This document shows, piece by piece, positions 16,829-38,517 of a DNA stretch of 64,000 bases. This DNA comes from Candidatus Acetothermia bacterium (lineage in GTDB: Bacteria; Bipolaricaulota; Bipolaricaulia; RBG-16-55-9; DRXL01). Both the position numbers and the translations under genes were made by a program. The DNA lies in NCBI GenBank assembly GCA_016179105.1, contig JACOSB010000160.1:164-64163 (forward strand), read 5' to 3'. The notes beneath the pieces were generated by a model that made no database searches, was not told where the DNA came from, and worked only from the letters and a program-made list of their open reading frames with translations. Numbering within the stretch: the stretch's first letter is position 1; every line of letters begins with the position of its first letter.

Positions 16829-16974
16829 GGAGACTTTTCATCTTTCGCCTTGGAATCACGGAACGCCCTGAAAGACTACACAGAAAACGCGGAAGAAAGG
16901 CAAGCCGTTTTCCGTGTTTTCAGTGATGTGTTTTCGATTCAGAATCATGCGAACAAAAAGGAAGAAAAAACGGG

Positions 16975-17047
16975 CGGTCCCAACGGGATTTGAACCCGTG
17001 TTTACGCCTTGAGAGAGCGTCGTCCTAGGCCGCTAGACTATGGGACC
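16975..17047 (-). tRNA. tRNA-Glu (anticodon CUC)
   Basis: Cloverleaf: GGTCCCA|TA|GTCT..GGAC|G|ACGCT-CTCTCAA-GGCGT|AAAC|ACGGG-TTCAAAT-CCCGT|TGGGACC|G. U33 and A37 are present. CCA is not encoded. Confidence 0.7.
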
Positions 17048-17140
17048 GGACTGTTTTCAGCGAAAAGATGCTTTAATATAGCAAATGCAGCCCAGAGGGT
17101 CAAGGTGAATCGAGCCAGCAGTTCTTGTTTTTCGTAGCTG

Positions 17141-17167
17141 TTCTTGGCGCTCTTCGCGTCTTGGCGG
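17141..17167 (-). repeat. Family B-related repeat fragment (CCGCCAAGACGCGAAGAGCGCCAAGAA) upstream of the tRNA-Ser promoter
   Basis: Reverse complement matches the 45586-45620 variant GCCAAGGCACGAAGAGCGCCCAGAAAAATCT. Confidence 0.5.
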
Positions 17168-17168
17168 T

Positions 17169-17197
17169 TTGATGAGAGAGAACTCGACTGTTATAAT
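17169..17197 (+). promoter_or_regulatory. Sigma-70-type promoter for tRNA-Ser (TTGATG -17 nt- TATAAT)
   Basis: -35 at 17169-17174, 17-nt spacer, -10 TATAAT at 17192-17197. The tRNA starts 13 nt downstream. Confidence 0.6.
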
Positions 17198-17209
17198 CTC
17201 TTGCCATCG

Positions 17210-17297
17210 GGAGGGATGACCGAACGGTAAGGAACTGGTCTCGAAAACCAGCACGGCCCAAAAGGCCTTCCGGGTTCGAATCCCGGTCCCTCCGCCA
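17210..17297 (+). tRNA. tRNA-Ser (anticodon CGA), with CCA encoded
   Basis: GGAGGGA acceptor. Anticodon stem CTGGT/ACCAG with loop CTCGAAA. Long variable arm CACGGCCCAAAAGGCCTT. T-arm CCGGG-TTCGAAT-CCCGG. 3' GCCA. Confidence 0.85.
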
Positions 17298-17338
17298 AAC
17301 AAAAACATTCCACACCGTTTGAGCTAGCTTTTTTTTGG

Positions 17339-17367
17339 TTGACGCGCGCTCGTGAAATCGCTAAACT
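17339..17367 (+). promoter_or_regulatory. Sigma-70-type promoter for tRNA-Arg (TTGACG -17 nt- TAAACT)
   Basis: -35 at 17339-17344, -10 at 17362-17367. It is preceded by a T8 run after tRNA-Ser. Confidence 0.5.
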
Positions 17368-17379
17368 ACTCTCACACAT

Positions 17380-17456
17380 GCGCCCGTAGCTCAGCGGATT
17401 AGAGCGTTGGCCTGCGGAGCCAAAGGTCGGAGGTTCAATTCCTCCCGGGCGTACCA
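17380..17456 (+). tRNA. tRNA-Arg (anticodon reads GCG), with CCA encoded
   Basis: GCGCCCG acceptor. D-stem GCTC/GAGC. Anticodon stem TTGGC/GCCAA with loop CTGCGGA. T-arm GGAGG-TTCAATT-CCTCC. An encoded G34 for Arg is unusual in bacteria, where ACG is normal. Confidence 0.7.
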
Positions 17457-18041: not shown

Positions 18042-18431
18042 ATGTTCAAGCTGAGCAATCGCAACAAAGCACTCGCTATTTTCGCTGTCATCGGAGGCAT
18101 CGCACTGTGGATGGCCGTTCTCGTCTTCGCGCATCCGAAGGTCACAAGCTCGAACATCGCCCCCGGCGCCGTGCTCGCTGCGGCCGACGTGCCCGGAAGC
18201 ATCCAAGTGCAATTCAGCGAGGACATCGACAACAAGCGCAGTACAATCTACGTCTATAAGATGGGCCCAGACAATGTCGTCGACCTGGGTGATGTGAGAG
18301 TCAATCAAGACACGCTCTCGGTGAGCTTAAGGCCCTCTCTCAGCGCGGGCGTCTATCAAGTCCGCTGGATCGCGATCAGTCCTGATGACGGCGGCTACCG
18401 TGAGGGCACGATCAATTTCGCCATAAAGTAA
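18042..18431 (+). CDS. copC: CopC-domain periplasmic copper-binding protein
   Basis: AHPKVTSS..PG..L....P..IQVQFSEDID...YVYK........VRVNQDTLSVSL...LSAGVYQVRWIAISPDDGGYREGTINFAI is the CopC fold signature, N-terminal H included. Confidence 0.8.
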   Translation: MFKLSNRNKALAIFAVIGGIALWMAVLVFAHPKVTSSNIAPGAVLAAADVPGSIQVQFSEDIDNKRSTIYVYKMGPDNVVDLGDVRVNQDTLSVSLRPSLSAGVYQVRWIAISPDDGGYREGTINFAIK

Positions 18432-18491
18432 ACATCTATAGATGTCAAAGAGTGGGGATCAGAGAAAAATCTGGCCCTCACTCTAGTACAA

Positions 18492-18941
18492 TTGAGAGAA
18501 CTATTTCTGAAAGGAGCCAAGATGAAAAACTCTCGTTTCTTCTCGAAGAAAGCGTTTATCGTTCTAGGTACTCTCGTCGCTGTTTTGGCCATTGCTATCG
18601 CAGGGTTAGTGCAAGCGCATCCAAGTCTACGCGCTGCTGAATCGAGCCCCTCACCGGGTCAGATCTTGAGCGTTGCTCCCACGCAAGTCAAACTCTCCTT
18701 CAACGTAGAAGATCAGGGCTTGGTGACAGACCAGAGCTACGCCTGGGTTTACAAAGAAGAAGGATTACAAGTCGTTGCTCTTGGCAAGGTAGACTTAAGC
18801 AGCGCAGGTCGTAACGTGATGATCATGGCACTGCCAGCCAACTTGAGTCCGGGCATATATATCGTCAAATGGGTGGCCGTCTCTGTTGTCGACCGTGGCT
18901 TCAGTGAAGGCAGTTACAGTTTCGCTGTGACCGGCAAGTGA
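18492..18941 (+). CDS. copC: CopC-domain protein, second paralog
   Basis: AHPSLRAAESSPSPGQILSVAPTQVKLSFNVED...GIYIVKWVAVSVVDRGFSEGSYSFAV. Family A palindrome copy 3 follows at 18977. Confidence 0.75.
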   Translation: MRELFLKGAKMKNSRFFSKKAFIVLGTLVAVLAIAIAGLVQAHPSLRAAESSPSPGQILSVAPTQVKLSFNVEDQGLVTDQSYAWVYKEEGLQVVALGKVDLSSAGRNVMIMALPANLSPGIYIVKWVAVSVVDRGFSEGSYSFAVTGK

Positions 18942-18976
18942 TTGAAAATGCTTTTAACCGCTTAAAATACGATTTT

Positions 18977-19003
18977 GTAGGGGCGAGGTAACCTCGCCCC
19001 TAC
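18977..19003 (+). repeat. Palindromic element, family A copy 3 (perfect 13-bp palindrome GTAGGGGCGAGGT-A-ACCTCGCCCCTAC)
   Basis: Read directly. It sits between the copC2 stop and the copCD start. Confidence 0.8.
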
Positions 19004-19015
19004 AGGAAATTTCTA

Positions 19016-21097
19016 ATGAGCCAGCACAAAATCTTTTTCAGAATCAGTTTCGGATTGCTGCTTGCCGGGTTTCTTATCGTGAGTCTGGGAGCGAGTGCCT
19101 TCGCGCACGCGTACTTACAGAAGACCGACCCGCCGGCGGGCTCTACCGTCGCGACAGCTCCGGAGCATCTGCAATTTTATTTTAGTGAAGATGTCGATTC
19201 CAAATTCAGCCAACTGACGCTCTTTGACTCCGACGGCAAAAAACTTGCTGATCTCAACTTCAAACTCGCGCCGAATGACCCTTTGCATCTCGATGCTACT
19301 CTTCCTCACGTGAGTGACGGCACTTATACGATCGCGTGGCGCGTGATGTCCGCCGTCGACGGCCACACGACCAAAGGCACTTATCCTTTCCGCATCGGCA
19401 AAGAAAGTGCAAGCTGCCTCGATGCGCCTCCCGCGACGCCCGCAAAGACTGAGGAGACCCCAACTCCTTGGGCGCGCGTCTTCTTCCATTGGTTGAGCTT
19501 TTTCGCGATCATTGGACTCGCAGGAGCTTTTTTCTTCCAAGCCCTGGTCATCCAACCGAGTCTACAAAAAGCGGGTTTTCCGGCCGAGCACTGGGCGAGC
19601 GTCACCGTAACAAAGAGCCAGAGATTCTTGCTGATATGCTGGGTCCTCTTCATCCTCACAACCATTCTCGATCTCATCGCTCAAGCCATGAGCAACAGCG
19701 ACTCTTCGTTCAGCCAAGTCATGCAGAGTGCCGTGATGATGCAACTTTTATCGACACGTTTTGGGCTAATCTGGCTCGTGCGCATCGGGCTCGCGCTCCT
19801 GCTGGGCTTATTGATAATTCTGAAAATCCACAAGAGCCGCGCAGGGCTCTGGAGCTCGCTGGGGCTGAGCGCGCTCGTCTTGTTGAGCATTTCTCTATCG
19901 AGCCACAGCGCGGCGCTCAAGGACGGGACTGTCTTAGCTATCTTCGTCGACTGGGTGCATTTGCTGACGTCGGCGATCTGGATCGGCGGCCTGTTCCAAC
20001 TGATGTCCGTGGCTGTTCCGGCGCTACGCTTAATTCCCGAAACGAACCGATACAAACTGATATCGCAGATTGCACCGCGCTTTTCGAGTCTTGCTTTTGC
20101 CAGCGTGATCTTGCTCATCGCTACGGGCGTCTACAGCGCGCTTCGTCAAGTCTCGTCTTGGGAGGCGCTCTTCACGACAACTTACGGGCGCGCGATCGCG
20201 ATCAAACATGTTCTGCTTATCTTCACGATCGCCGTTGCTGCGATTCATTTCTTAAACATCGTGCCGCGCTTGTCGCGCATAGCCGATTCGATTACACAAG
20301 CTACGGCTGAACAAGCGAAGAGCTTGATCCGGCGTTTTCGCAGTTTGGTCAGCGTGGAAGCCGTCATGGTTGTCGCGGTGCTCTTCTTTGCGGGAATCTT
20401 GACGCTCGTCCCGACGGCCTCCCAACCTCAAGATGAGACAGCGTTAGCCCGCACGGGGCCGCTCACGTTCACGGGGCAATCTCAGGGGTTGACTATCATT
20501 CTCACGATGTGCTCGGACCAAGTGGGAGACAACGAGTTCGATGTCTTGGTCTCCGACCCTCAGAAGAATGCGCCCGTCGCCGATGCTCTACAGGTGCTTG
20601 TGGGCTTTAACTATCTCGGACAAGATTTGGGAGGGCTGCACGCCATCGCTGCGCTCAAGGGTAACGGTCATTATCGGACTCAAGGCGCTTTCATGAATTT
20701 AGCCGGAGACTGGGAAGCGACGGTCAGCGTGCGTCGCGCCGGGCAAGCTGAAGATGCCTCAGTAAAATTTTCTCTCAAAATTAAAGATAAGAACGGCCAG
20801 ACTCATGCGGAATCGAAGCCCCAATATGATGCAGCGATGATCGAAAAGGGGCAACTTTTGTACACGCAAAACTGCGCGGCGTGTCACGGTGACTCCGGCC
20901 GGGGCGATGGCCCGGCTGCCCCGACGCTCAAGTACAAGCCCGCGGATTTGGTCGCCCATCGTGGCCATCACACCGATCAAGATTTTCTCTGGGTTGTCCG
21001 TGATGGAACGGGCCTCACGATGCCGGGGTTTAAGGGCAAGGTGAGCGAGGAGGAGATTCGACAGATTATCGCGTATATTAGACAGTTGAAAGAATAA
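19016..21097 (+). CDS. Tripartite fusion: CopC domain, CopD copper-transport membrane domain and a C-terminal mono-heme cytochrome c domain
   Basis: N-terminus AHAYLQKTDPPAGSTV...YTIAWRVMSAVDGHTTKGTYPFRIG is CopC. The middle ~350 aa holds multiple TM helices of CopD type. C-terminus YTQNCAACHGDSGRGDGP...GLTMPGF has CxxCH plus a Met ligand, as in cytochrome c. Confidence 0.8.
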   Translation: MSQHKIFFRISFGLLLAGFLIVSLGASAFAHAYLQKTDPPAGSTVATAPEHLQFYFSEDVDSKFSQLTLFDSDGKKLADLNFKLAPNDPLHLDATLPHVSDGTYTIAWRVMSAVDGHTTKGTYPFRIGKESASCLDAPPATPAKTEETPTPWARVFFHWLSFFAIIGLAGAFFFQALVIQPSLQKAGFPAEHWASVTVTKSQRFLLICWVLFILTTILDLIAQAMSNSDSSFSQVMQSAVMMQLLSTRFGLIWLVRIGLALLLGLLIILKIHKSRAGLWSSLGLSALVLLSISLSSHSAALKDGTVLAIFVDWVHLLTSAIWIGGLFQLMSVAVPALRLIPETNRYKLISQIAPRFSSLAFASVILLIATGVYSALRQVSSWEALFTTTYGRAIAIKHVLLIFTIAVAAIHFLNIVPRLSRIADSITQATAEQAKSLIRRFRSLVSVEAVMVVAVLFFAGILTLVPTASQPQDETALARTGPLTFTGQSQGLTIILTMCSDQVGDNEFDVLVSDPQKNAPVADALQVLVGFNYLGQDLGGLHAIAALKGNGHYRTQGAFMNLAGDWEATVSVRRAGQAEDASVKFSLKIKDKNGQTHAESKPQYDAAMIEKGQLLYTQNCAACHGDSGRGDGPAAPTLKYKPADLVAHRGHHTDQDFLWVVRDGTGLTMPGFKGKVSEEEIRQIIAYIRQLKE

Positions 21098-21116
21098 TTC
21101 CGGGGAGAATCTCAAT

Positions 21117-21746
21117 ATGTCAAAAGAAAAAGCACAGAAAAAACAGAGTTCGAGCCCAAGCTCACGCGCCTGGCTCATCGGTGGCATCGTTGTAGCGATC
21201 GTAGCGGCCATCGCCATCGGAGCTTACATCTGGAAGACAAGCTCTGGGACAAGCTCAAGCCTAACGACCAATGGACCTGTCGAAAACCGGCCATTGCCTG
21301 ATCATGGAGACAAGAGCTTGCTCCAAGGGGTCGAATCGTTCCCCAACGAAGGACGCGATCACGTCTCATCTGCTTCTGAGCTTAACTATAAGACTGACCT
21401 ACCTACGTCGGGGGCTCATTTACCCAGCCCTGTGCCGGCGGGATTTTATAGCGAAAAAATTCAACCGGGGCTCTTGGTGCATAGTTTAGAGCACGGAGGG
21501 GTTGTCATCTATTATGATCCCGCGCGGCTCTCGAACGACGTCGAGAAAAGTTTGCGAGCTTTTGTCAAAGCGCACCTTGAGATGTGGGCGGGTGTCGTCG
21601 TCATGCCGAGCCCGGTACACTATGATGCTCCCTTTATTCTCACGGCCTGGACGAAGATGCTCAAGCTAGAAAATTATGATGCGCGCGTCGTGCAAGCTTT
21701 CTTGGCCGAGTACTTGGGGCGTGGGCCGGAGAACCCGGTGCGTTAA
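21117..21746 (+). CDS. DUF3105-domain membrane-anchored protein
   Basis: N-terminal TM segment (WLIGGIVVAIVAAIAIGAYIW) then ...HSLEHGGVVIYYDPA...TAWTKMLKLENYD, typical of DUF3105. Confidence 0.55.
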   Translation: MSKEKAQKKQSSSPSSRAWLIGGIVVAIVAAIAIGAYIWKTSSGTSSSLTTNGPVENRPLPDHGDKSLLQGVESFPNEGRDHVSSASELNYKTDLPTSGAHLPSPVPAGFYSEKIQPGLLVHSLEHGGVVIYYDPARLSNDVEKSLRAFVKAHLEMWAGVVVMPSPVHYDAPFILTAWTKMLKLENYDARVVQAFLAEYLGRGPENPVR

Positions 21747-23236
21747 GAGTCGGTGAGAGGTCTCTTCATAAACTCTGCAGGCCGGGGAAAAATCGAAGAT
21801 ATTTCCGACAATTCTGTTTTCAGCTGCGCTGCTACTTGCCTTGCTCGCTCCGCTAACTTCTCTCTCAGATAACCAGCTTCCATAGCCGCGTGCAGTTTGG
21901 CTTCGTCAATAATACGAACTTCTCCCTCCGGCTCGCGCGTCACGTCAATCTCCAAGTCGATATAACGGACGCGGTCGGGATAGATCTCGATCGGCGTGTT
22001 CACGTTCGCATAGATACCTTTGCAACGTTCATCGTTCGAATAATAGAAGGTGCGATACTCCCAACGGCCCTCGCAGAATTCTGTGAGCGCGAAATCTCCC
22101 GGAGCTTTGAGCGCGCTGAGCCCGTCGTAGCTTCCATTGCCTCGGATCTCGCGACGCAGCTGCACCGTCTTCTTCGCCGAATCGGCCGCCATTACCTTCC
22201 CGCGCCCCAAAATAATCGTCTCGCCCTCGGGCTTGACGTGTTCGATCAGCAGAGTCTCGCCGACTTCAGGGAATTCGACCATGCGCCCGTTGGAATGATC
22301 GGTGTTGTCACCGAGATACTGTTGGAGCCGTGCTTCGGCTCGATCCACTGTGCGAAAAGACCCGGCGGCTTTGTATTTGTGATGTCCCGGCAACGTCGGG
22401 ACGATCTCGCCACGAAGCTGATCCAAACGCTGCTTGGCGCTCCCGGGAAATTCAAACTGAGTCGTCGCTTCGAACCCGAGCAACAACCCGGGAATGCCTT
22501 CCTCGGGGTGGTCGTGCAAGTGTTCGGTGTGTGCGACCAGCCTCTCTAACTCTGCGATCAGTTCCGGCTCGTCACACTGATACGCGGCGGTGCGCCAGAT
22601 GACGCCCCAGCCTGGGGGCAAGAGTCGACGGCCCACGCGGAGCAAGCGCTCGCGCTCCGCCAACTCTTCTATTTCTCGACTGACTCGAATATTCCCTTGA
22701 GAAGAGAGGACGGCGCGTTGGCCGGGCAGGCTGATCTCCATCGTCACGATGAGATGTTTTCCGGCCGGAGCAAGCTCGCACACTTGGACCAAGATCGCTT
22801 CTCCCAGCCGCAACGGACGAGAGGCCTTGCTGTGAGGCAAGAACCCTACATCGCATCCCAAATCCATCAAATATCCCGACGGACGCAACGATTGAACGAG
22901 CCCCCAGTAGACCGAGTGCAAAGGAGCTTTCACCGGGCGCGTCATCACATCGGGCAAATCGTCTTGGAACGTTGTGGCTAATTTTTCGAGTGCTTCTTTT
23001 GGCCCAGCGGCGATGATGCCCTGACCGCACTCACTGTCTTTTAGCTCAAGGTCGAACGGCTCATACAGGGGCCCCAACTGAAACCGTTCTTGGATTTTGC
23101 GAGAGGGCTGGACGATGGAAAATCCCCGACGATGAAGCAGGTGGGTGAGGGCGGTTGAGTAGATTCCACGGACACGCACTCGGTTCATAAGTGCCCTAGA
23201 GTAACACATCGCGCGTAAAGAGACAACTGGTCCCAT
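21743..23236 (-). CDS. FAU-1-like RNase E/G-family RNA-binding protein with a C-terminal DUF402 (FomD-like) domain, an archaeal-type architecture
   Basis: N-terminus MNRVRVRGIYSTALTHLLHRRGFSIVQPS matches the archaeal FAU-1 start. C-terminus FYYSNDERCKGIYANVNTPIEIYPDRVRYIDLEIDVTREPEGEVRIIDE is DUF402. Confidence 0.6.
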   Translation of the reverse strand: MGPVVSLRAMCYSRALMNRVRVRGIYSTALTHLLHRRGFSIVQPSRKIQERFQLGPLYEPFDLELKDSECGQGIIAAGPKEALEKLATTFQDDLPDVMTRPVKAPLHSVYWGLVQSLRPSGYLMDLGCDVGFLPHSKASRPLRLGEAILVQVCELAPAGKHLIVTMEISLPGQRAVLSSQGNIRVSREIEELAERERLLRVGRRLLPPGWGVIWRTAAYQCDEPELIAELERLVAHTEHLHDHPEEGIPGLLLGFEATTQFEFPGSAKQRLDQLRGEIVPTLPGHHKYKAAGSFRTVDRAEARLQQYLGDNTDHSNGRMVEFPEVGETLLIEHVKPEGETIILGRGKVMAADSAKKTVQLRREIRGNGSYDGLSALKAPGDFALTEFCEGRWEYRTFYYSNDERCKGIYANVNTPIEIYPDRVRYIDLEIDVTREPEGEVRIIDEAKLHAAMEAGYLREKLAERARQVAAQLKTELSEISSIFPRPAEFMKRPLTDS

Positions 23237-23356
23237 CTTCTGTTATTATGCTCGATATGATCGAGATCGATGGAGCAATTGGCGGCGGTTCGGTCCTGCG
23301 GGCGGGGATCGGGCAAAACGCTGCCTTGGATTTACTCAAACCGTCCGTGTGAAGGG

Positions 23357-24136
23357 CTAAATCTCATATCGTTCAACGATCTTTTTCTCGCCCGTGCCGT
23401 CGCCGATGATCTCGACGTGAATCTCAAAATACTCTGCGATGCCTGAATTTTTGAGCTTGGGTTTGAGCAGATTATCGACCTGAAAAATGCCCGCCGAGTT
23501 GGCCATCTCGATCTCGATGCAGACCGGCTTTTTCTCACCGGGTTTCAATTTCACGTTCGCGATCGCGAGCGCCGAGACGGCGTGAATCGTCGCTGTGCCC
23601 GCTTTGAACGGGATGCGCGCGCGGCCCTCTTCCATGTCGAGCGCGTCGGCAATTTTCAGCACGCCGGCTTCGACGGTCATGGGCGGTATATCGGTGTCGT
23701 GCGCGTAGATGGCATGAAGGACTTCCGCCATCATGATCGCTTTCTCACGTTCTTGATAAATTCCCTCGAGCACGCCAGGAAGCATATCGAGCGCGATCGA
23801 GACCGAGAAGGGTTCGTGATGAATGCGATGCACGATATGCCCAATGTCGTGAAAGCACGCGGCGAGCACGACGATCACTTCGGCATCGTCTTTGCTCATC
23901 TGATGGTCCTTCTCGACGCTGGTTTGGATGCCCTTCTCCATGAGCATGCGCAGAATTTTTAGGGCGATGTTGCTCACGATGCGAATGTGCACCGGCCCGT
24001 GATCGTTGATGCCCAGGCGGTTGATCGCGTTCACATTGCAGCAGTACCAAAAGGTGTTGAGCTTTACGCTCTCGTCGATGCGCTTCACGATCGCCGCGAG
24101 TTTTTCGTTTTGTTTGACGGGAACATTCAACGGCAT
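23357..24136 (-). CDS. HD-domain metal-dependent phosphohydrolase
   Basis: H..H ... CFHDIGHIVHRIHHE ... D motifs of the HD superfamily. It sits 12 nt downstream of the NMNAT gene in the same operon. Confidence 0.7.
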   Translation of the reverse strand: MPLNVPVKQNEKLAAIVKRIDESVKLNTFWYCCNVNAINRLGINDHGPVHIRIVSNIALKILRMLMEKGIQTSVEKDHQMSKDDAEVIVVLAACFHDIGHIVHRIHHEPFSVSIALDMLPGVLEGIYQEREKAIMMAEVLHAIYAHDTDIPPMTVEAGVLKIADALDMEEGRARIPFKAGTATIHAVSALAIANVKLKPGEKKPVCIEIEMANSAGIFQVDNLLKPKLKNSGIAEYFEIHVEIIGDGTGEKKIVERYEI

Positions 24137-24148
24137 AGCATGAACTCC

Positions 24149-24682
24149 TTAGGGTTGCTTGTCGGTCTTGGCGATCTGGCGCAGGCGCTCGATCCCGTCG
24201 ATCTCGTCCAATACTGCGGCGACGGTCGTGGGCACGAATTTTTTCCATTCCTCGCCTTGGAGCATCAGCTCGCGAATTTTCGTTCCTTCGTAACGGTCGC
24301 GTTGGACGAAGGGCAAAGGTCTTACTTCAAATCCCGCTTCAGAAAAGAGTTCTTGCACCAGCGTATTGTTCGAGTAAACGATCTCAAACGGAGGAGTCAG
24401 CGAACGGATGTGCGCCACATAGAGCGAGTTTCTTTCAATGTCTTCGATGGGCAAAACATAGGTGGTCATCTTGGTTCCGGCGAGCGCTTTCGTGATCATC
24501 ATGATGCGTTCGCCGGCCGTGAACGGGTCTCTCAATGTGTGACTCCACTGAGCCGAGCCGACGGCGATCACCAGTTCGTCTACGTCGTCGCTCTGCACGA
24601 TATGGTCGATGAGCGCTTGATGGCCGTTGTGATAGGGCTGAAAGCGCCCAAGAAAGAGCGCGCGACAGACGTTGGTGCTCAC
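24149..24682 (-). CDS. nadM: Archaeal-type nicotinamide-nucleotide adenylyltransferase (NadM family)
   Basis: LFLGRFQPYHNGH (the (H/T)xGH nucleotidyltransferase motif in its archaeal GRFQPFHKGH form), AVGSAQ.SHT..PFTAGER and a C-terminal IERLRQIAKTD. Confidence 0.85.
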   Translation of the reverse strand: MSTNVCRALFLGRFQPYHNGHQALIDHIVQSDDVDELVIAVGSAQWSHTLRDPFTAGERIMMITKALAGTKMTTYVLPIEDIERNSLYVAHIRSLTPPFEIVYSNNTLVQELFSEAGFEVRPLPFVQRDRYEGTKIRELMLQGEEWKKFVPTTVAAVLDEIDGIERLRQIAKTDKQP

Positions 24683-24933
24683 GCGCGGGCACCCCCGGCG
24701 AGCGCTTGGCGGATGCGTTCTTTGATGAGATCGGGTTTGGGCAAAACGCCTTCCATCGCGAAAATTTTCTGGTCATTCAAAGATACATCGAAAACGCCCT
24801 CGTGCCCCGGCAGCAGTGTGAGCGAGTCGATCTGCTCAGGATGTTCTTCGAGCAAAGCCCGAACGAGCTCCAGGGCGCGGGGCAAATACATGCACTCAAC
24901 ACAGTATTCGATCGTGATGCATGCCCGTTTCAT
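24679..24933 (-). CDS. Rdx/SelW/SelT-family thioredoxin-fold protein (CxxC variant)
   Basis: 84 aa with ITIEYCVECMYL near the N-terminus, the Rdx CxxU/CxxC position. It is translationally coupled to nadM (ATGA overlap). Confidence 0.55.
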   Translation of the reverse strand: MKRACITIEYCVECMYLPRALELVRALLEEHPEQIDSLTLLPGHEGVFDVSLNDQKIFAMEGVLPKPDLIKERIRQALAGGARA

Positions 24934-25060
24934 ATGCGGCTCATTCTAGCACTCGCTGCACTGGGGTACAACTGAGTGTAGGCGCAGTTCGCGAACCGCC
25001 TCCGCGACGGTGGCCGAACTTCCTGTGCAGGGTTATAATTCACATCAAGGAGGAATCGAA

Positions 25061-25588
25061 ATGCTTAAATTCGGAGATGTCGCGCCAGAGTTCAACTTGC
25101 CCGGTGTCGAAGGAAAAAATCATAAACTTGCGGACCACAAAAGCAAGAAAGCCGTCGCTGTCATTTTTAGTTGCAACCATTGTCCCTACGTGAAAGCGTT
25201 CGAAGATCGGATGATCGCGCTCGCACGCGACTATGCTCCCAAGAGCGTGCAATTCTTGCTCATCAACGCCAACGATCCCGTAAAATACCCGAGCGACAGC
25301 TTTGAGCAGATGGCTGTCCACGCCAAAGAAAAGAACTACCCATTCCCGTACCTGCACGATGCGTCTCAACAAATCGCGAAAGCTTATGGCGCTCAGCGCA
25401 CACCCGAAGTTTTTTTGTTTGATAACAGCTTCAAGCTGCGCTATCGCGGGACGATTGACGACAGCGTAGACGACCCAAATAAAGTGACCAAGCGCTATCT
25501 GAAAGACGCGCTCGACGCCGTCGTGGCGGGCAGAGAGCCGGCAACGAAAGAGACAGCGCCGGTGGGTTGCACGATCAAATGGAAGTGA
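25061..25588 (+). CDS. Thioredoxin-fold thiol-disulfide oxidoreductase (redoxin/AhpC-TSA family)
   Basis: RBS AAGGAGG then ATG. ...AVAVIFSCNHCPYV has a CxxC motif. A TATAAT -10 lies at 25034-25039. Confidence 0.8.
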   Translation: MLKFGDVAPEFNLPGVEGKNHKLADHKSKKAVAVIFSCNHCPYVKAFEDRMIALARDYAPKSVQFLLINANDPVKYPSDSFEQMAVHAKEKNYPFPYLHDASQQIAKAYGAQRTPEVFLFDNSFKLRYRGTIDDSVDDPNKVTKRYLKDALDAVVAGREPATKETAPVGCTIKWK

Positions 25589-25685: not shown

Positions 25686-26540
25686 TTAAGTGTTCTTACG
25701 ATATTGATTGATCCGAGCGCGCCAGTGCTCCGCGCGTCGGCGGGCGGCTTGCACGAAATCTTTTTCGCTCGACGCGAAGATCACATCGCGCGAGACGTTG
25801 ACGAGCAGTCGTGCTTTGTTTGCGCCCATCCCGTTTTTCACAGACTGTTCGAGATCTCCGGATTGGGCACCGATCCCCGGCAAGAGAATCGGCATCTCGT
25901 TGCCAATAGTTTTGCGGATGATGCCTAGCTCGCGCGGGGCCGTTGCTCCGACGACGAGTCCAATGTTCTGATCTTTGTTCCACTCGCGCGCGCTCTCCGC
26001 CAAATGCTGATAGAGCGGTTTGCCTTCACAATTCAGTTCTTGGAAATCGCGTGCGCCGGGATTGGATGTGCGACACAGTAGAAAGATCAGTTTGTCAGAA
26101 TATCTTAAGTATGGCGCGAGCGAGTCATAGCCCATGAGCGGGTTCACTGTTGCTGAATCAAACTGATAAAACTCGAAGAGTGCCTTGGCATACTGGCGCG
26201 CTGTGTTCTCTAAATCTCCGCGCTTGGCATCGGCGAGCGTGATGATTTCTTTGGGGATGTATTCGCGTGTCTTTTGTAGCTCTTCCAGGCCCGCCGGGCC
26301 GAGCGCTTCGTAAAACGCCAAGTTCGGCTTGTACGCGCAGACTAGATCTGCCGTTGCGTCAATAATTTGCTTATTGAACTCAAAGAGCGCGTTGACGCCG
26401 TATTTCCCTACGAGAAAGCGCGGCAGCTTTTCGTACTCTGGATCGAGCCCGATGCAGAGCAAGCTCTGGTTGGATGCACAAACAGCGTCTAGTTTTGCGA
26501 TGAATTTCACAATGGCTCTAGAAGATCTCTCTGAGAGCAA
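25686..26540 (-). CDS. pyrF: Orotidine-5'-phosphate decarboxylase, type 2 (long form)
   Basis: LLCIGLDPE..., KPNLAFYEALG and TLADAKRGDLENTA match type-2 PyrF. Confidence 0.85.
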   Translation of the reverse strand: MLSERSSRAIVKFIAKLDAVCASNQSLLCIGLDPEYEKLPRFLVGKYGVNALFEFNKQIIDATADLVCAYKPNLAFYEALGPAGLEELQKTREYIPKEIITLADAKRGDLENTARQYAKALFEFYQFDSATVNPLMGYDSLAPYLRYSDKLIFLLCRTSNPGARDFQELNCEGKPLYQHLAESAREWNKDQNIGLVVGATAPRELGIIRKTIGNEMPILLPGIGAQSGDLEQSVKNGMGANKARLLVNVSRDVIFASSEKDFVQAARRRAEHWRARINQYRKNT

Positions 26541-27705: not shown

Positions 27706-28293
27706 ATGCGCACCTTCGTCATCCTCGCTCATAAAGCCCCGCTCACACACGAATTTAGCTTGAATGACTTGCCCGGCGGCGCGGGCCGCATCGATGTGCT
27801 CTGCCGCTGCGTGACCGCAAGTTTTTGCCTCTCTCACGGCATCCGCAAAGACGTACAAGTCTATCTCGTTTTTCAGAATCAGCTCGTCGTTCGCTTGCAC
27901 GGAGAAACTCTAAGACACCTAAACCCCGACGAACGCTCGACGGCTGCACTTTTGCAGAAAGCCCTCAAAGCCCAGTCCGAATGCGTCGGCGAGCAAGAAG
28001 TCCAGAGCACCTCTGGAATCTTTGTCTCGAGACGCGGACTGCCCCAACTGCTCGAACAACTCCAATCGCAAAATACTAAAATCATCCAACTGCACGAAGC
28101 CGGAGCGCCTTTGCGCAATACTGTGTTGCCAACCAACTGCGCCTTCCTCTTGAGCGACCATTTAGAGTTCGACCCCGCAGAAGACGCTCTCCTCAGCCAA
28201 GCGCTCCGTCTCAATCTGGGTCCGAAGAGCCTCCACGCTGACCACTGCATCACGATCGTGCACAACGAACTCGACTTGCGGGAGATCAACTAG
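27706..28293 (+). CDS. trmY: TrmY-like SPOUT methyltransferase (DUF358; tRNA pseudouridine-54 N1-methyltransferase family, archaeal type)
   Basis: FVILAHKAPLTHEFSLNDLPGGAGRIDVLCRCVTASFCLSHGIRKDVQVYLVF matches the TrmY/DUF358 N-terminal signature. Confidence 0.65.
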   Translation: MRTFVILAHKAPLTHEFSLNDLPGGAGRIDVLCRCVTASFCLSHGIRKDVQVYLVFQNQLVVRLHGETLRHLNPDERSTAALLQKALKAQSECVGEQEVQSTSGIFVSRRGLPQLLEQLQSQNTKIIQLHEAGAPLRNTVLPTNCAFLLSDHLEFDPAEDALLSQALRLNLGPKSLHADHCITIVHNELDLREIN

Positions 28294-31266: not shown

Positions 31267-34200
31267 ATGGCTGACCAATTTGAGAATCCTGACTCACATT
31301 CAAACTCTGATGAGCTGACAGCTCTACGACAGCAGGCCGAGCAATACGCAGCACAATTGCAAATCATCAATAGCATTCAACAAGGGCTTGCAAGCAAACT
31401 GGATATACAAGCCATTTATGATCTGGTTGGCGACAAGGTCTGCGAGATCTTCGATGCCCACGTGGTTCAAATTCTCTCATACGATCCGGCAGCGAATCTC
31501 ATGCATTACCCGTATTGTAATGAAATGGGCGACCGACATTCACACGACCCACGTCTGCCCGGCGGCTTTTCAGGCCACATACTCCAGACGCGCCAACCAC
31601 TCATGATCAACCAGAACCTGGTGGCGCGTTCAGCGGAACTCGGGAAAACCGTACCGTTATCCGGAGACTGGCCTAAATCTTATCTGGGGGTTCCTTTGCT
31701 CGTGGGTGATGAAGTTCGCGGTGTTCTCACTCTCCAAATCTTAGACCGCGAGAACGGCTTCAACGAATCTGACCTGCGCCTGCTTCAGACGCTCGCCAGT
31801 AGCATGAGCATGGCGCTCGAAAACGCGCGTCTCTTTGATGAAGTGCAAAATCGAAATGATGAGATCACTGATGCGTTAGAGCGAGAAACTGCAACGAGCG
31901 ATATTCTCAAAGTGATCGCCAACTCGCCCACCTACATTCAGCCTGTGCTCGATGTGATCGCTGAGCATTCGGCACGGTTATGTGCATCGGACGACGCTGT
32001 CATCGTGCTGGTGGAAGACAACTTTTTGAGGGTGTCCGCCCATTACGGCAGTATCCCCATCACACAAGTGGGTGAAGGGATTCCGTTGGATAAAGAGACT
32101 GTCGTCGGGCGAGCGATCCTGGAGGGTGGAACCTTTCAAACGATCCATGGCCAGAACGAGGCCGCACCCGACTATCCGGCCGGCGACGCAAACGCAAAAA
32201 AATTCGGCTATCGCATGACGTTCTCGACCCCGCTGATGCGGCAAGGCAAGGCAATCGGCGGCATCACCATTCGCCACATCGAACCAAAGCTACTGAGCGA
32301 TAAACAAGTCGAACTGGTCAAGACCTTTGCCGATCAAGCGGCCATTGCTGTCGAGAATGTGCGGCTCTTCAACGAGACCAAAGAAGCACTCGAACAACAG
32401 ACCGCTACGAGCGAAGTGCTCCGTGCCCTGAGTAGCTCTCAAACGGACTTGAAGTCTTTGTTGGAAGTCATTGCCGTGAACGCGGCTAAGGTCTGTGGCG
32501 CCGATGATGCTCACATCTACCGCGTTGAGGGCAACATGCTCAAAGAATGGACACACCGCGGGCCAATTCCAGGGTTAGAGGCGGGCGAATCCTTACCGCT
32601 CAACCGCAAGTCGTTGACGGGCCGCGCGATCGTGGATCGGCAAACTATCCATATCCACGATGCGGCTGCAGAATTGAACGAGGCCGAGTATCCGATCAGT
32701 GCCGCTCTTCAGCGACGATGGGGCACTCGGACGGTGCTATCTATTCCATTGCTCCGCGATGGAGAGCCGATCGGGGGCATTGCCATTCGCCGCAAAGTGG
32801 TGCAACCGTTTACGGAGAAGCAGATTGAGTTGCTCAAATCCTTCGCCGATCAGGCTGTGATTGCGATTGAGAATGTGCGTCTTTTTGATGAGACTCAGCG
32901 TCTGCTCAAAGACACTCAACAACACGCCGCCGAGCTCGCCATTATCAACAGCGTGCAAGAAGGGTTGGCGTCTAAGCTAGATTTCGAGGCAATCATTGAT
33001 CTCGTGGGTGACAAGATTCGTGAAATATTCGATGCGCAGAGCGTGGCCATTGGCAGGTACGATCACGTGAATGGTCTGGTCAACTATAGTTATGTGGTCC
33101 AAAAAGGACACCGAGTGCAATGGAGTCCGTCGCCTTTTGCGGGTATGAGCCATCATATGATTAACACTCGACGGACATTGGTCATCAATGAAAATGTTGC
33201 TCAACGAATGAAAGAAATTGGTGCCATCTTCCCAGATGAGTTTGATCTGCCGCGCTCTACAGTGTATGTACCGCTGCTTGTGGGAGAAACGATCACGGGT
33301 GTGATTAATATCGCTAATCTGGATCGCGAGCACGCCTTTAGCGAATCCGATGTGCGCCTGCTCCAAACGCTCGCCAACAGCATGAGCGTGGCGCTCGAAA
33401 ACGCGAGGCTCTTTAATGAGACTCAACAACGCAACGCCGAGCTTGCCATCCTCAACAGCGTGAGCGAAGCCATGTCGAAGACGCTCGATGTCAAGACCGT
33501 GACGAAGATCGTGGGCGACAAGGTGCAAAGTATCTTTGCCTCAGAAGCCGTGAGCATCCGCTTATATGATCCCGCCACCAACCTCATTCAGCGCGCCTAT
33601 GATTATGACCGCGGTTATGAAGACCTGACTGATACCTCGTTTCCCATGGGCCAAGGGCTGACCTCGAAAATCATCCTTTCCGGCAAGCCGCTCATGTTTG
33701 GCACAGAACAGGAATCATACAGCGCTGGCTCACTGAATGTGCCTTCCCAGAAGGGCGACGAAGCGACGCAATCCTATCTTGGCGTTCCCATTATCGTCAA
33801 TGATAAAGTGATAGGCACCGTTTCCATTCAAAGTTATAAACAACACGCCTATAACGAAAATCACTTGCGCCTCCTGCAAACGCTCTCGTCCAACATGGGC
33901 GTCGCCATCCAGAATGCACGTCTCTTTGAAGCCGAGAAGCAGCGCGCCGCTGAACTTGCGATCATCAACAGTGTGCAAGCAGGACTCGCGTCAAAACTCG
34001 ATATGCAAGCGATTTACGATTTGGTGGGCGACAAGATTCGCGAGATCTTCGACGCACAGGTAGTAACCATTCTCTCTTACGACCACACCAGCAATCTCTT
34101 GCACTTTCGCTACTCGATCGAAAAAGGCGAACGGCAAACCGCTGAACCTTCACCGCTCGGCAAAGGATTTGCCTCCCATATTTTTAGGACACGCGAGCCG

Positions 34201-37200
34201 TTGCTCATCAATCAAGATATTGAAAAGCGGCGCGCTGAATTTGGCGCGGTTGTCCCCATGGGCTCTCCTGCCAAATCCTATCTCGGCGTTCCTTTGATCG
34301 TCGGTGATGAAGCCAAAGCCGTCATCACCTTGCAAAACATTGATCGCGAGAACGCTTTCACCGAATCCGACCTGCGTCTCTTACAGACACTCGCCAACAG
34401 CATGAGCGTCGCCCTCGAAAACGCCCGTCTCTTCGACGAGACTCAGCGCCTGCTCAAAGAGACCGAACAGCGCAACGCGGAACTGGCAGTCATTAACAGT
34501 GTCCAAACTGCGCTCGCCGCTGAACTCAACATGCAAGGCATCTACGACGCGGTAGGCGACAAGATCCGTGAGATATTCAATCAGGCAGATATCAACATCC
34601 GTATCTATGACCCCAAGACAAATCTAGTTCACTATCCATACGCATACGAAAATGGGAAACGCATCGCGATTGATTCGCGCCCGTTACGCGAAACCGGCTT
34701 CAATGCTCATGTCCTCCGCACCCGCGAGACATTGGTCATCAACGAGAACATGGCGCAAGAAATAGTAAAGTATGGCAGCTCCATCATCCTAGGCACACAA
34801 CTGGAAAAATCGGCTATGTATGTGCCGCTCGTGGCAGGCGATCAAGCGCGCGGGTTAATTGAAATCGGCGATTATCAACGCGAACACGTCTTTAGCGAAT
34901 CAGATGTCCGTCTCCTGCAAACCCTCGCCACTGCAATGAGCGTCGCGCTGGAAAACGCACGTCTGTTCGATGAGACTCAGCGCCTGCTCAAAGAGACCGA
35001 ACAGCGCGCTGCCGAACTCGCCATCATCAACAGCGTGCAAGAAGGACTCGCATCAAAGCTCGATATGCAGGCGATTTACGATTTGGTGGGCGACAAGATT
35101 CGCGAGATTTTCGACGCACAAGCGGTAACGATCGCCACCTTTGATCTCGAAAAAGAGATGGGTTATCAGCGCTATAGCATCGAAAAGGGTCAGCGCTTTT
35201 ACTCCGAGCCGGCACGATACGGTAATATTGCCAAGCAACTGATCGCCACTCGCCAGCCCGTGCTTTACCAAACCCGCCAGCAACTCATCGCAACGGGTGT
35301 CGGCGTCGCTCCTGGGACGGAGCCATCCAAGTCCGCCGTGTATGTGCCGCTCGTCGTCGGCGATGTGGTGAAGGGCGCGATAAGTTTGCAAAACGTTGAT
35401 CGCGAGTACGCGTTCACCGAATCGGATGTGCGCCTATTACAAACCTTTGCCAACAGCATGAGCGTCGCCCTCGAAAACGCACGGCTCTTCGACGAGACCC
35501 AGCGCCGAGCGCAGGAAATGTCAGCACTGATCGAAGTAGGTCGTGACATCTCGGCAACGCTCGATCCGACGACAGTCTTGGAACGCATCGCACGTCACGC
35601 ACGCGATCTTTTGCAGGTCAGTGATTGTGCCGTCTTCTTACCCGATGAAACGGGGCAGGCGATGAAGGCCTTCGTCGCGCTTGGACCCATCGCTGCGCAA
35701 ATCAAAGCGATGACGATTCAATTCGGCGCGGGCATTATCGGCAGCATCTGGAAGACGGGAGCCGCCGAAGTCATCAACGATGCGAGCCAAGATCCGCGCG
35801 GCGTAAAGATCGCTGGGACTGAGGATAAATCTGATGAAAAACTGATGGTCGCGCCGTTGTTATCGGGTGATAAAGTGATCGGCTTAATGTCGGTCTGGAG
35901 ATCGGGCGGCGATCGTTTTTTCGAGGACGATCTAATATTCTTGATGGGCTTGGCTCGCCAAGCTACCATCGCCATTCAGAATGCACGTCTCTTCAATGAA
36001 ATCCAGGCGCGCAACCGTGACATCACCGAAGCCTTGGAACAACAAACCGCAACCAGCGAAATCCTGCGCGTCATCGCCAGTTCTCCGACAGACGTGCAAC
36101 CCGTGCTCGAAACGGTTGCGCGGCACGCAGTGAAACTGTGTGATGCGGTATTTTGCGGCGTGTATCGAGTGCAGAACGGAATAGTTTCTCTCGGGGCACA
36201 GTACAATTTGACGCCGGAGGTGGTTGAAGAACTCAACCGCGTACTGCCTGCACCGATCGAGAGCGCACCTAGTATCTCTGCTGAAGCGGTGCGTCGCCAA
36301 ACAATCATTCACATTGCAGACATCGAAAACGAACCCACCGTACCCTCGTGGACGCTTCGAGTCGCGCGGAAGCTAGGGTATAAGAGCATTGTTGCCATCC
36401 CAATGTTGCGGGAGGGTGAGGTCCTCGGTGCCATCACGGTCGCCAGACGCGAAGCAGGGAATTTCACGGATAAACAGATCGCTCTCCTGCAAACCTTCAC
36501 CAATCAAGCGGTCATCGCCATCGAAAATATACGACTATTCAATGAGGTGAAGAACCAGAGACAATTCTTGGAAGCAGTGATCGCCAACAGCCCTGCTGCG
36601 ATTGCGCTCATCGGAAGAGATGCAATAATCAGGGGATGGAATCTGGCTGCTGAAAAATTGTTCGGTTATACCGAAACAGAAGCCCTCGGCCGCAATATTG
36701 ACGATCTGATCGCCTATAGAGAAGAGGTGCGTTTCGAAGCCCTTCACTATACGAATCAAGCCCTCACCGAGAACCGATTCCATATTATCACGAAGCGTGT
36801 CCGTAGAGATGGTAGCTTCGTCGATGTGGAAATATCGGTCTTGCCCATCAACCCTGCCAATCTGAACGAGGGATTTGTTGTTATCTATCACGACATCACC
36901 GAACTCCAGCGCGCGCGCCAAGAAGCGATCGCGGCCAATGAAGCGAAGAGCGCCTTCTTGGCAACGATGAGCCACGAGATTCGCACTCCGATGAACGCCG
37001 TCATCGGAATGAGCGGCCTACTGATGGACACTGATCTCACCCGAGAACAGCACGAGTATGCCGAGACAATCCGCAACTCCAGCGATACGCTTTTAACTAT
37101 CATCAATGATATATTGGACTTCAGCAAGATCGAGGCCGGGAAGATGGAATTGGAGCATCAGCCCTTCGATGTGCGCGAGTGCGTTGAGTCGGCACTGGAC

Positions 37201-38517
37201 TTGGTCGCGGGGCGCGCCGTCGAGCGCGGACTCGATCTGGCGTATCTGATTGATGACGAGGTGCCCAGCGTCGTGCGCGGCGATGTCACGCGCGTGCGTC
37301 AGATTTTGCTCAACTTACTGAGCAACGGAATCAAGTTCACTGATCATGGCGAAGTAGTCGTTGAAGTGAAGCGCGGACAAGCTGCCAATGAGTTGCTCTT
37401 CTCGGTGCGCGATACCGGCATCGGCATCTCACCCGAGGGCATGAAGCGGCTCTTCCAGTCTTTTAGTCAAGCCGACTCGTCGACGACGCGCAAATACGGT
37501 GGTACGGGCTTAGGCTTGGCCATCAGCCGAAAACTTGCGGACATGATGGGCGGTACGATGTGGGCCGAGAGCAAGGGTGTGCCGGGCAAAGGGTCTACTT
37601 TCTTCTTCACGATTAAAGCAGAGGTGGCAAAGTCAATTGTGAGTAAATCGGTGCGCAATCTGAGCAGCCTGCAGCCCGAAGTCGAGGGCAAGCGCATTCT
37701 CATTGTGGACGACAACGCGACCAACGGTCGCATCTTGGAAATACAGACGAAGAAGTGGGGCATGACTCCACGAGTGGCAAAATCGCCCAAGCAAGCGCTC
37801 AAGATTGTGAAGACGAAGAAAAAATTTGATCTGGCAATTTTGGATATGCACATGCCCGAGATGGACGGCATGGCGCTCGCGAAAGCGCTGCGAAAATTGC
37901 CCAGTGCCAAGAAATTGCCTTTGATCTTACTCACGTCGTTGGGGCGTCAAGGAACCAAAGAAAAAGTTTCAGCATTTGCAGCGTATCTCACCAAGCCGGT
38001 CAAGCCCTCACAACTCTTTGATGCGCTGGCGAGCGTTTTTGCTGGCGCGAAAACCAAGCAGCGTAAAGCAACTTTATCAAAGATTAAGACAGCGAAACAA
38101 AAATTCGATCCAAAGATTGCCAAGCGGCATCCTTTGCGGATCTTGCTCGCCGAAGACAACGTCGTCAACCAGAAAGTCGCGCTGCGCATTTTGGATCAGA
38201 TGGGCTATCGTGCCGATGTGGCGTCGAATGGTCTGGAAGCGATCGAAGCCGTCGAGCGTCAGCATTATGATGTGATCTTGATGGACGTGCAGATGCCCGA
38301 AATGGATGGGCTTGAAGCGACGCGGCGCATTGTCGCACGCTGGAGTAAAAAGAAGCGTCCGCACATCGTCGCGATGACGGCAAATGCGATGCAGGGCGAC
38401 CGCGAGATGTGCCTCGCTGCGGGCATGAATGATTACATCACCAAGCCCATTCGAGTCGATGAACTAATCGGCGCTCTGAACAACGTCACTCCCCAAAAGA
38501 GGAGAAATAATTTATGA
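31267..38517 (+). CDS. Giant hybrid sensor histidine kinase with 10 tandem GAF domains, a PAS domain, HisKA, HATPase_c and two receiver domains
   Basis: 2416 aa. Ten GAF units are each bounded by L(E/Q)NARLF(D/N)E(T/V)Q linkers. HisKA: [23 protein letters not shown]. HATPase: [15 protein letters not shown]...[13 protein letters not shown]1: [10 protein letters not shown]...[13 protein letters not shown]2: [10 protein letters not shown]...[11 protein letters not shown]. Confidence 0.9.
31363..35520 (+). repeat. Intragenic array of near-identical ~150-200-nt repeats (GAF linker plus GAF N-terminus) with a ~0.6-kb period
   Basis: gagactcagcgcctgctcaaagagaccgaacagcg...atcatcaacag(c/t)gtgcaag...ctcgatatgcaagcgatttacgatttggtgggcgacaagattcgcgagat recurs at ~32880, 33960, 34440 and 34975 with over 85% identity. 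Confidence 0.8.

Follow-up and report, generated by a model that had tools for sequence, protein, structure and literature searches.

The DNA analysed here, a stretch of 64,000 nucleotides from Candidatus Acetothermia bacterium (hereafter the window), carries on its minus strand at 21743–24933 four adjoining genes, which encode a Rdx/SelW-like protein (Rdx), a nicotinamide-nucleotide adenylyltransferase (NMNAT), a phosphohydrolase of the HD superfamily (HD) and the ribonuclease FAU-1, now called RNase W. The four genes are probably two independent, vertically inherited units of the Bipolaricaulota, a Rdx–NMNAT–HD operon and RNase W, that were brought together by a local deletion, and their archaeal character probably belongs to the phylum. 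An initial annotation had read them as one operon with a possible role in nicotinamide adenine dinucleotide (NAD) metabolism or nucleotide processing; its four minus-strand open reading frames (ORFs) are confirmed at these coordinates, whereas the evidence does not support one NAD/RNA module made up of all four genes.

The host is a bacterium, represented by a Candidatus Acetothermia/Bipolaricaulota metagenome-assembled genome (MAG). The genes dnaN, lspA and tmk lie within the same window, and the label 'Candidatus Acetothermia bacterium' is carried by a database protein identical to the window RNase W and by P0241, which is named NMNAT and is 100% identical to the window NMNAT. Together with the family and structure matches given below, these three host genes uphold the earlier description of four archaeal-type genes in a bacterial genome. 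Throughout, L001–L175 denote the compared loci and P numbers the homologous proteins. The features of the locus are as follows.

24679..24933, minus strand: Rdx/SelW-like thioredoxin-fold protein, 84 residues, CVEC motif (PF10262, TIGR02174); gene 1 of the Rdx–NMNAT–HD operon
24149..24682, minus strand: archaeal NadM-type NMNAT, 177 residues (TIGR01527; PDB 1EJ2, 1F9A)
23357..24136, minus strand: HD-domain phosphohydrolase, 259 residues, with an extra C-terminal alpha/beta domain at residues ~184–259 (PF01966)
23248..23352, plus strand: remnant of rtcA, the RNA 3'-phosphate cyclase gene, 34 codons (tblastn and blastn against L088)
21743..23188, minus strand: RNase W (FAU-1), 481 residues, RNase_E_G and DUF402; the mechanical ORF extends to 23236 (497 residues)

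The rtcA remnant between HD and RNase W

The stop codon of Rdx overlaps the start codon of NMNAT by 4 nucleotides (GTGA), and the HD start follows the NMNAT stop after 12 nucleotides, with an AAGGAG ribosome-binding site, whereas HD and RNase W are 168 nucleotides apart and the spacer between them holds a remnant of rtcA on the opposite strand. The translational coupling of Rdx to NMNAT is thus confirmed, and the tight gene order that had been noted applies to the first three genes and not to the fourth. The hallmarks of an operon, i.e., tight spacing along with adjacency in other genomes, were found for Rdx–NMNAT–HD and failed for RNase W.

The origin of the junction is revealed by locus L088, whose HD protein is 87% identical to that of the window. 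The gene order in L088 is Pus10, DUF4015, EamA, Uma2, pyrF, AhpC, Rdx, NMNAT, HD, rtcA (opposite strand) and RNase W; from EamA on, this is the order of the window plus the rtcA that separates HD from RNase W. By blastn, window positions 23314–21939 align with L088 9773–11153, a segment that spans the first ~80 nucleotides of rtcA and then RNase W. By tblastn, residues 4–34 of the L088 RtcA match window positions 23242–23334 (61% identity over 31 residues, E=5e-5), and no other convincing RtcA match was obtained in the window by this search. The plus-strand translation of 23248–23352, which includes MLDMIEIDGAIGGGSVLRAG and ends in a stop, amounts to 34 codons, and the ~340 codons of an intact RtcA are not present in the window; only the first ~20 rtcA-derived codons are kept inside the 34-codon ORF. 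The short rtcA/RNase W intergenic sequence and ~90 nucleotides of the rtcA 5' region are also conserved relative to L088. Read from these alignments, ~1 kb of rtcA has been deleted in the window lineage. The stub, taken with the synteny of L088, therefore makes the adjacency of HD and RNase W secondary, a result of that deletion. Ancestrally, the neighbour of RNase W would have been a divergently transcribed rtcA of archaeal type, the loss of which would have left the 34-codon stub and set RNase W 168 nucleotides downstream of HD.

A further scenario, which we consider possible but doubtful, is that a new transcription unit comprising all four genes arose from the deletion, so that RNase W is co-expressed with the NAD operon in this lineage in the absence of any ancestral functional link. 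The convergent rtcA that formerly separated the two units is now deleted and the coding strand of the 168-nucleotide spacer has no hairpin resembling a terminator, as this scenario would have it; the conservation of the intergenic sequence and of the ~90 nucleotides of rtcA, however, is to be expected if RNase W is still transcribed from a promoter of its own there. The scans are weak either way: no terminator-like site appeared in the HD/RNase W spacer, and the promoter and terminator counts around the junction are at the level of shuffled sequence.

The Rdx–NMNAT–HD operon

Rdx is a member of the Rdx/SelW-SelT-SelH group, with matches to PF10262 (E=2e-15, 57 bits versus 22.6) and TIGR02174 (50.7 bits versus a cutoff of 34.2) and a CxxC motif, CVEC, at residues 11–14. 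The NMNAT is a member of the NadM family, which exceeds the cutoff of TIGR01527 'arch_NMN_Atrans' (226.8 versus 181.2 bits) and aligns over its full length to 1EJ2 and 1F9A (MJ0541) with E ~1e-56; with its GRFQPYHNGH motif, it is of the archaeal type, as had been recognised from this motif and from its likeness to Methanocaldococcus NMNAT. The HD protein matches PF01966 (E=3e-8), and its metal motif, H50, H96-D97 and D164, is invariant in 18 sequences, in keeping with the HD superfamily; the family is large and strongly conserved, with 2762 homologues in one search, at least 579 species in a genome scan and 71% mean column identity. In the AlphaFold2 model (predicted local distance difference test score 84), a helical HD core is joined to the C-terminal alpha/beta domain. 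PDB searches with the HD protein returned generic HD-fold matches only, among which YqeK ranks low, and the identification of HD as YqeK (COG1713, a hydrolase of diadenosine tetraphosphate (Ap4A) and proofreader of NadD) was rejected.

In an HD-centred survey of 80 species-level genome loci, NMNAT lies directly upstream of HD in 28, in all of which HD is at least 59% identical to that of the window and all of which belong to Bipolaricaulota-type MAGs. A profile search of the fetched loci detected Rdx in 26, and a divergent AhpC/TSA-like gene adjoins it in ~20 loci. The strongest support for the unit comes from a natural Rdx–NMNAT fusion (P0267–P0283), in which 282–285 residues include a variable linker of ~25 residues and which is followed by the HD gene; such fusions occur on many contigs, one of which is 1.79 Mb long (e.g., L091 8001–8849). 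Thus, Rdx–NMNAT–HD is a real conserved operon.

From its family membership, the NMNAT would convert nicotinamide mononucleotide (or nicotinic acid mononucleotide) and ATP to NAD (or nicotinic acid adenine dinucleotide) and pyrophosphate. Rdx may serve as a CxxC redox partner, a functional tie to NMNAT that is backed by the fusion. The most likely function of the HD protein, by analogy with the NadD–YqeK and NadM–Nudix pairs, is metal-dependent phosphohydrolysis of nucleotides or dinucleotides, by which it would serve the neighbouring adenylyltransferase in housecleaning or proofreading; this is the weakest step of the proposed mechanism.

In Firmicutes and Mollicutes, the HD hydrolase YqeK is clustered or fused with the adenylyltransferase NadD and hydrolyses mis-made dinucleotides and Ap4A (bioRxiv 10.1101/2021.12.01.470718). 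As in NadD–YqeK, the gene for an HD-superfamily phosphohydrolase directly adjoins that for a NAD-pathway adenylyltransferase in the window, for which a similar proofreading or housecleaning logic is plausible. The bifunctional NadM–Nudix enzymes (2qjo, 2qjt) likewise pair a NadM-type adenylyltransferase with a nucleotide pyrophosphohydrolase; however, their match to the window protein is weak (E ~1e-5) and covers the N-terminal part only, and the hydrolase of the window is of the HD type and a separate polypeptide. Archaeal NadM (MJ0541, 1F9A; M. thermautotrophicus, 1EJ2) has in common with the window NMNAT the equivalog-level match, the full-length alignment and the GRFQPxHxGH motif, but the window NMNAT is found in a bacterial host, its gene being translationally coupled to that of Rdx (the two are fused in relatives) and preceding that of an HD hydrolase. 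Rdx–NadM–HD, with its fusion, would be a third instance of a NAD adenylyltransferase paired with a pyrophosphohydrolase and gives the uncharacterised HD family and the bacterial Rdx protein their first functional context.

Residue 206 of the HD protein is a cysteine in 26 of 26 Rdx-carrying loci and K, R, E, N or M in ~60 loci without Rdx; exceptions, in which Cys206 occurs in the absence of Rdx, are L022, L030 and L020, the contig of L020 beginning ~100 nucleotides before NMNAT. This distribution, although confounded by shared ancestry, suggests Cys206 as a possible target of the CxxC protein. Three Bathyarchaeia-like loci (L155 9293–11033, L144 10155–11864 and L154) have an HD gene (49–50% identical) that directly follows the gene for an ARMT1/DUF89 'damage-control phosphatase', 3–4 kb downstream of rtcA–RNase W. 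The Cys206 pattern and the ARMT1/DUF89 neighbour are weak leads toward a housecleaning or proofreading role. Additionally, the HD genes of DHVE2 and Aciduliprofundum (55–57% identical) adjoin an FKBP isomerase gene. In L036–L087, which represent another clade of Bipolaricaulota with HD at most 58% identical, a conserved protein of 151 residues with no family match is encoded upstream of HD, and a short XerA/XerD-like tyrosine recombinase is encoded downstream, often with mutL nearby.

RNase W and its pairing with rtcA

The 497-residue ORF contains the Pfam domains RNase_E_G and DUF402 and aligns over its full length with the 'Probable ribonuclease FAU-1' structures 8wo8 and 8rza (E=5e-79), ORF residues 19–473 corresponding to residues 8–464 of 8rza (E=7e-79). 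It has the architecture of RNase W, i.e., a central domain, an S1/5'-sensor (RNase E/G-like), a helical domain and a C-terminal DUF402 nuclease domain. Its earlier description as FAU-1-like with DUF402 is therefore sound, apart from the start, which is placed at the second methionine (ATG at 23188, MNRVRVRGIY...), giving 481 residues in agreement with the NCBI protein P0001 and with the start in L088.

FAU-1 was renamed RNase W in 2024, when DUF402 was described as the nuclease and the S1/5'-sensor and central domains as regulating it via recognition of the 5'-phosphate; late 16S rRNA maturation was impaired in a Haloferax mutant (Vayssieres et al. 2024, PMC11602121). All fourteen functional residues named in that study are conserved in the window protein, as read from the alignment in P. 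furiosus numbering. The active-site residues H326, K328, D364, N404, D420, D424 and D437 correspond to H333, K335, D371, N411, D427, D431 and D444 of the 497-residue ORF, and the regulatory residues R10, R12, H271 and H272 to R21, R23, H285 and H286; the RNA-contact residues R355, T378 and Y391 are also conserved. Since all fourteen are kept, the window protein is regarded as a genuine RNase W that is probably active. It would constitute a single-gene unit, with DUF402 as the nuclease and the S1/5'-sensor as the regulatory part, and by analogy with archaea it probably acts in rRNA maturation. RNase W of Pyrococcus furiosus, Sulfolobus acidocaldarius and Haloferax volcanii has the same full-length architecture and the same catalytic, RNA-contact and regulatory residues; unlike these archaeal enzymes, the window protein is found in a bacterial host, is only 33–39% identical to the best archaeal matches and has lost its rtcA partner by deletion. 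'Mini' forms of RNase W, with 304–343 residues, are encoded by complete genes inside contigs (P0050, P0062 and P0076; L175 4388–5362); they keep the N-terminal 85 residues and the helical/DUF402 part (51–52% identical) and are missing the S1/5'-sensor region. One of them is labelled Methylomirabilales, and P0073 is instead devoid of the helical domain.

The neighbours of RNase W in relatives differ from those in the window. A divergent rtcA is located directly upstream of RNase W, with neither NMNAT nor HD, in three lineages (L001/L002, L006), and L003 has RNase W with neither NMNAT nor HD and with no adjoining rtcA. In L004, the locus with the closest full-length RNase W relative (66% identity), Pus10 is found upstream and DUF3105/CopCD downstream, the latter as in the window. 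In L007, Rdx–NMNAT–HD is separated from RNase W by, in this order, a small ORF, an opposite-strand rtcA and two further genes. Altogether, eight Bipolaricaulota lineages were examined, of which four have divergent rtcA–RNase W; in another the distance to rtcA is 1.4 kb, and in the window the stub is left. The initial annotation had stressed the linkage of NMNAT, HD and the DUF402 protein, with gene-neighbourhood conservation as the check and lack of conserved linkage as the refuting outcome; the NMNAT–HD link is conserved (28 of 80 HD loci), and no such linkage is seen for RNase W, which in relatives is separated from the two genes by rtcA or located elsewhere.

These neighbourhoods bear directly on the proposal that the four genes form one NAD/RNA module, in which, e.g., decapping of NAD-capped RNA by HD yields a 5'-monophosphate RNA that activates RNase W via its sensor, or which acts as a NAD salvage unit. 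The genes share a strand, and no terminator was predicted at the HD/RNase W junction, as would suit such a module; relatives, however, have an opposite-strand rtcA at this position, and the adjacency in the window is explained by the deletion. The two units are a few kb apart in several lineages, but only one of the 28 NMNAT–HD genome loci (L027) has RNase W within 8 kb, again with an opposite-strand rtcA in between, and most RNase W loci, archaeal ones included, are devoid of NMNAT and HD. RNase W does possess a 5'-monophosphate sensor, but no deNADding family was matched in family and fold searches of the window proteins, and nothing was found at the locus that points to NAD-capped RNA, a link that had been raised at the outset. 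Such a module is thus improbable, and we favour two units, of which RNase W is ancestrally linked to rtcA.

The rtcA of the Bipolaricaulota is archaeal in type as judged from its matches: RtcA of this phylum scores 204 bits against P. horikoshii 4o89, its best PDB match, versus 133 bits against E. coli RtcA, and the intact RtcA of relatives, encoded next to RNase W, exceeds the cutoff of TIGR03399 (297 bits). The same pairing occurs in archaea. In a complete Bathyarchaeota genome, the two genes share a strand, rtcA ending 3 nucleotides ahead of RNase W (L094 4957–7431), and a metagenome scan seeded with Bathyarchaeota RNase W yielded 80 Bathyarchaeia-like loci (L095–L174), in which rtcA is directly upstream of and co-directional with RNase W in 55 of the 59 that have enough upstream sequence. 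None of the 80 has NMNAT near RNase W, and HD is found 3–4 kb downstream in only three. In Thermococcus and another archaeal lineage examined, rtcA is not paired with RNase W, and neither NMNAT nor HD is found beside it.

The chemistry of RNase W was left open by its authors, who found the active site occupied by a dinucleotide 3'-phosphate and considered '3'-phosphate or cyclic 3'-phosphate' processing (PMC11602121), and FAU-1 cleavage at UA is resistant to EDTA (Ikeda et al. 2017, PMC5627344). Both the 3'-phosphate ligand and the EDTA-resistant UA cleavage are compatible with products that would be substrates of RtcA, and the rtcA–RNase W pair, found in two domains of life, offers a concrete partner candidate. 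The linkage is not mentioned in the literature searched, papers on RNase W/FAU-1 included, and searches for Bipolaricaulota with Pus10 and for RNase W/DUF402 with RtcA returned nothing relevant.

Archaeal character and surroundings of the locus

RNase W is called archaea-specific both in the study that introduced it in 2024 as a ribosome-biogenesis nuclease (PMC11602121) and in a 2025 survey (PMC12641178), whereas a whole bacterial phylum has, judging by its conserved residues, an apparently competent copy. The Bipolaricaulota have been reported to possess unusually few bacterial ribosome-biogenesis factors (PMC12641178). Bipolaricaulota homologues of the window RNase W are 40–66% identical, ahead of the best archaeal matches at 33–39% (Bathyarchaeota, Thermococcus), and the NMNAT is 52–56% identical to its nearest archaeal counterparts. 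In a rough neighbour-joining tree of 115 full-length RNase W matches, built without support values, P0001–P0043 form one clade apart from the archaea, every named member of which is Bipolaricaulota/Acetothermia. Local GC content (0.54–0.57) is no different from that of the remaining window. An archaeal affinity of these genes is likely and, because of the spread of homologues, the single clade and the unremarkable GC content, it appears to be an old, phylum-wide trait and not a recent island. The archaeal origin by horizontal transfer that had been suspected is therefore retained in part, as an old event. RNase W, RtcA, NadM and TrmY, and Pus10 in relatives, would most likely derive from old exchange with archaea, with a Bathyarchaeia-like source for rtcA–RNase W.

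A recent acquisition of the genes by horizontal transfer, as an archaeal island confined to this genome, is very improbable. RNase W, NadM and TrmY do lie within 7 kb of one another, but GC content is uniform with the surroundings, the same genes occur in the same order in many Bipolaricaulota at 40–87% identity, the bacterial RNase W sequences are one clade, and the nearest archaea are as distant as stated above; moreover, no integrase or tRNA flanks the genes, the tRNAs being ~4 kb away beyond the cop genes. An archaeal contig, or a chimeric mis-assembly of archaeal and bacterial DNA, could be suspected from the archaeal-type gene content alone and is hardly credible in view of dnaN, lspA and tmk in the same window, the uniform composition and the same synteny in independent NCBI, JGI and Logan assemblies.

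Three further genes lie near the Rdx–NMNAT–HD operon.

25058..25588, plus strand: AhpC/TSA-family thiol peroxidase-like gene, divergent from the Rdx operon (PF00578, E=8e-19; ORF listed from 25010, likely start MLKFGD)
25686..26540, minus strand: pyrF, type 2 orotidine 5'-monophosphate decarboxylase, a syntenic context gene (TIGR02127, 256 bits)
27706..28293, plus strand: TrmY, archaeal-type tRNA (pseudouridine54-N1)-methyltransferase (NF002560, PF04013)

TrmY, which had been noted 2.8 kb away, is confirmed by scores above the equivalog cutoff of NF002560 (237.4 bits versus 183) and by PF04013 (E=5e-55), and in L025 it lies beside pyrF–Rdx–NMNAT–HD. Pus10 of archaeal type, which is not in the window, is encoded in the close relatives L088 (2004–3239, minus strand) and L004 (6671–7903), where it scores 512 bits against the TIGR01213 cutoff of 200; a 2021 review states that Pus10 is absent from Bacteria (PMC7912444). 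The Pus10 of relatives, combined with the TrmY of the window, predicts m1-pseudouridine54 and, thus, archaeal-style tRNA T-loops in a bacterium.

We tentatively propose, as a broader picture that is rather unlikely to hold in its entirety, that the Bipolaricaulota possess an archaeal-type RNA-maturation kit consisting of RNase W, RtcA, and Pus10 plus TrmY making m1-pseudouridine54. In this proposal, rtcA–RNase W would be an RNA-end-processing pair shared with the Bathyarchaeia, RNase W producing or consuming the 3'-phosphate or 2',3'-cyclic-phosphate ends that are handled by RtcA; separately, Rdx–NadM–HD would be a redox-linked module for NAD synthesis and proofreading, with the CxxC protein acting on HD via Cys206. 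Each of these genes is already annotated in public records, and novelty at the window itself is modest. That a bacterial phylum possesses RNase W, RtcA, Pus10 and TrmY, that rtcA is paired with RNase W and that Rdx is fused with NadM are points apparently unreported in the literature searched.

Several observations weigh against the interpretation of two independent units with the functions suggested for them. The Rdx–NMNAT–HD operon lies within 1–6 kb of rtcA/RNase W in L007, L021, L026, L027, L028, L031 and L088, which would allow for a loose functional tie, and given the lack of a terminator-like site at the HD/RNase W junction, transcription reading through it could in effect unite the four genes in one transcript here. 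The neighbour-joining tree has few named tips in addition to its lack of support values. Furthermore, the HD family is also common in the absence of NMNAT (other Bipolaricaulota, the archaea DHVE2 and Aciduliprofundum, and Bathyarchaeia) and resembles YqeK neither in sequence nor in the ranking of fold matches, and the function proposed for it is argued from analogy.

The gene pyrF occupies the same relative position in L007, L025 and L088 as in the window. It is also found ~4–5 kb upstream of rtcA–RNase W in a subset of the Bathyarchaeia-like loci, namely L129, L131, L137, L142, L149, L150, L159, L163, L167 and L169. A transfer between Bathyarchaeia and Bipolaricaulota of a shared pyrF...rtcA–RNase W...HD block was considered and not adopted, the archaeal pyrF being of a different subtype with 26–30% identity, and the proximity of pyrF to rtcA–RNase W in both groups may be a coincidence.

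A cluster of tRNA genes at 16972–17456, with Glu-CTC (minus strand), Ser-CGA (plus strand) and Arg-GCG (plus strand), is located ~4 kb from the four-gene region; no integrase was found next to it, and an Rfam scan of the window detected these three tRNAs and nothing else. A copper-handling cluster at 18042–21746 on the plus strand encodes two small CopC proteins, a CopC–CopD–cytochrome c fusion of 693 residues and DUF3105, the last of which is convergent with RNase W and overlaps its stop codon by 4 nucleotides; this cluster is kept downstream of RNase W in L004/L005. Finally, a hybrid histidine kinase of 2416 residues is encoded at 31267–38517 on the plus strand, with approximately ten GAF domains, PAS, HisKA/HATPase and two receiver domains.

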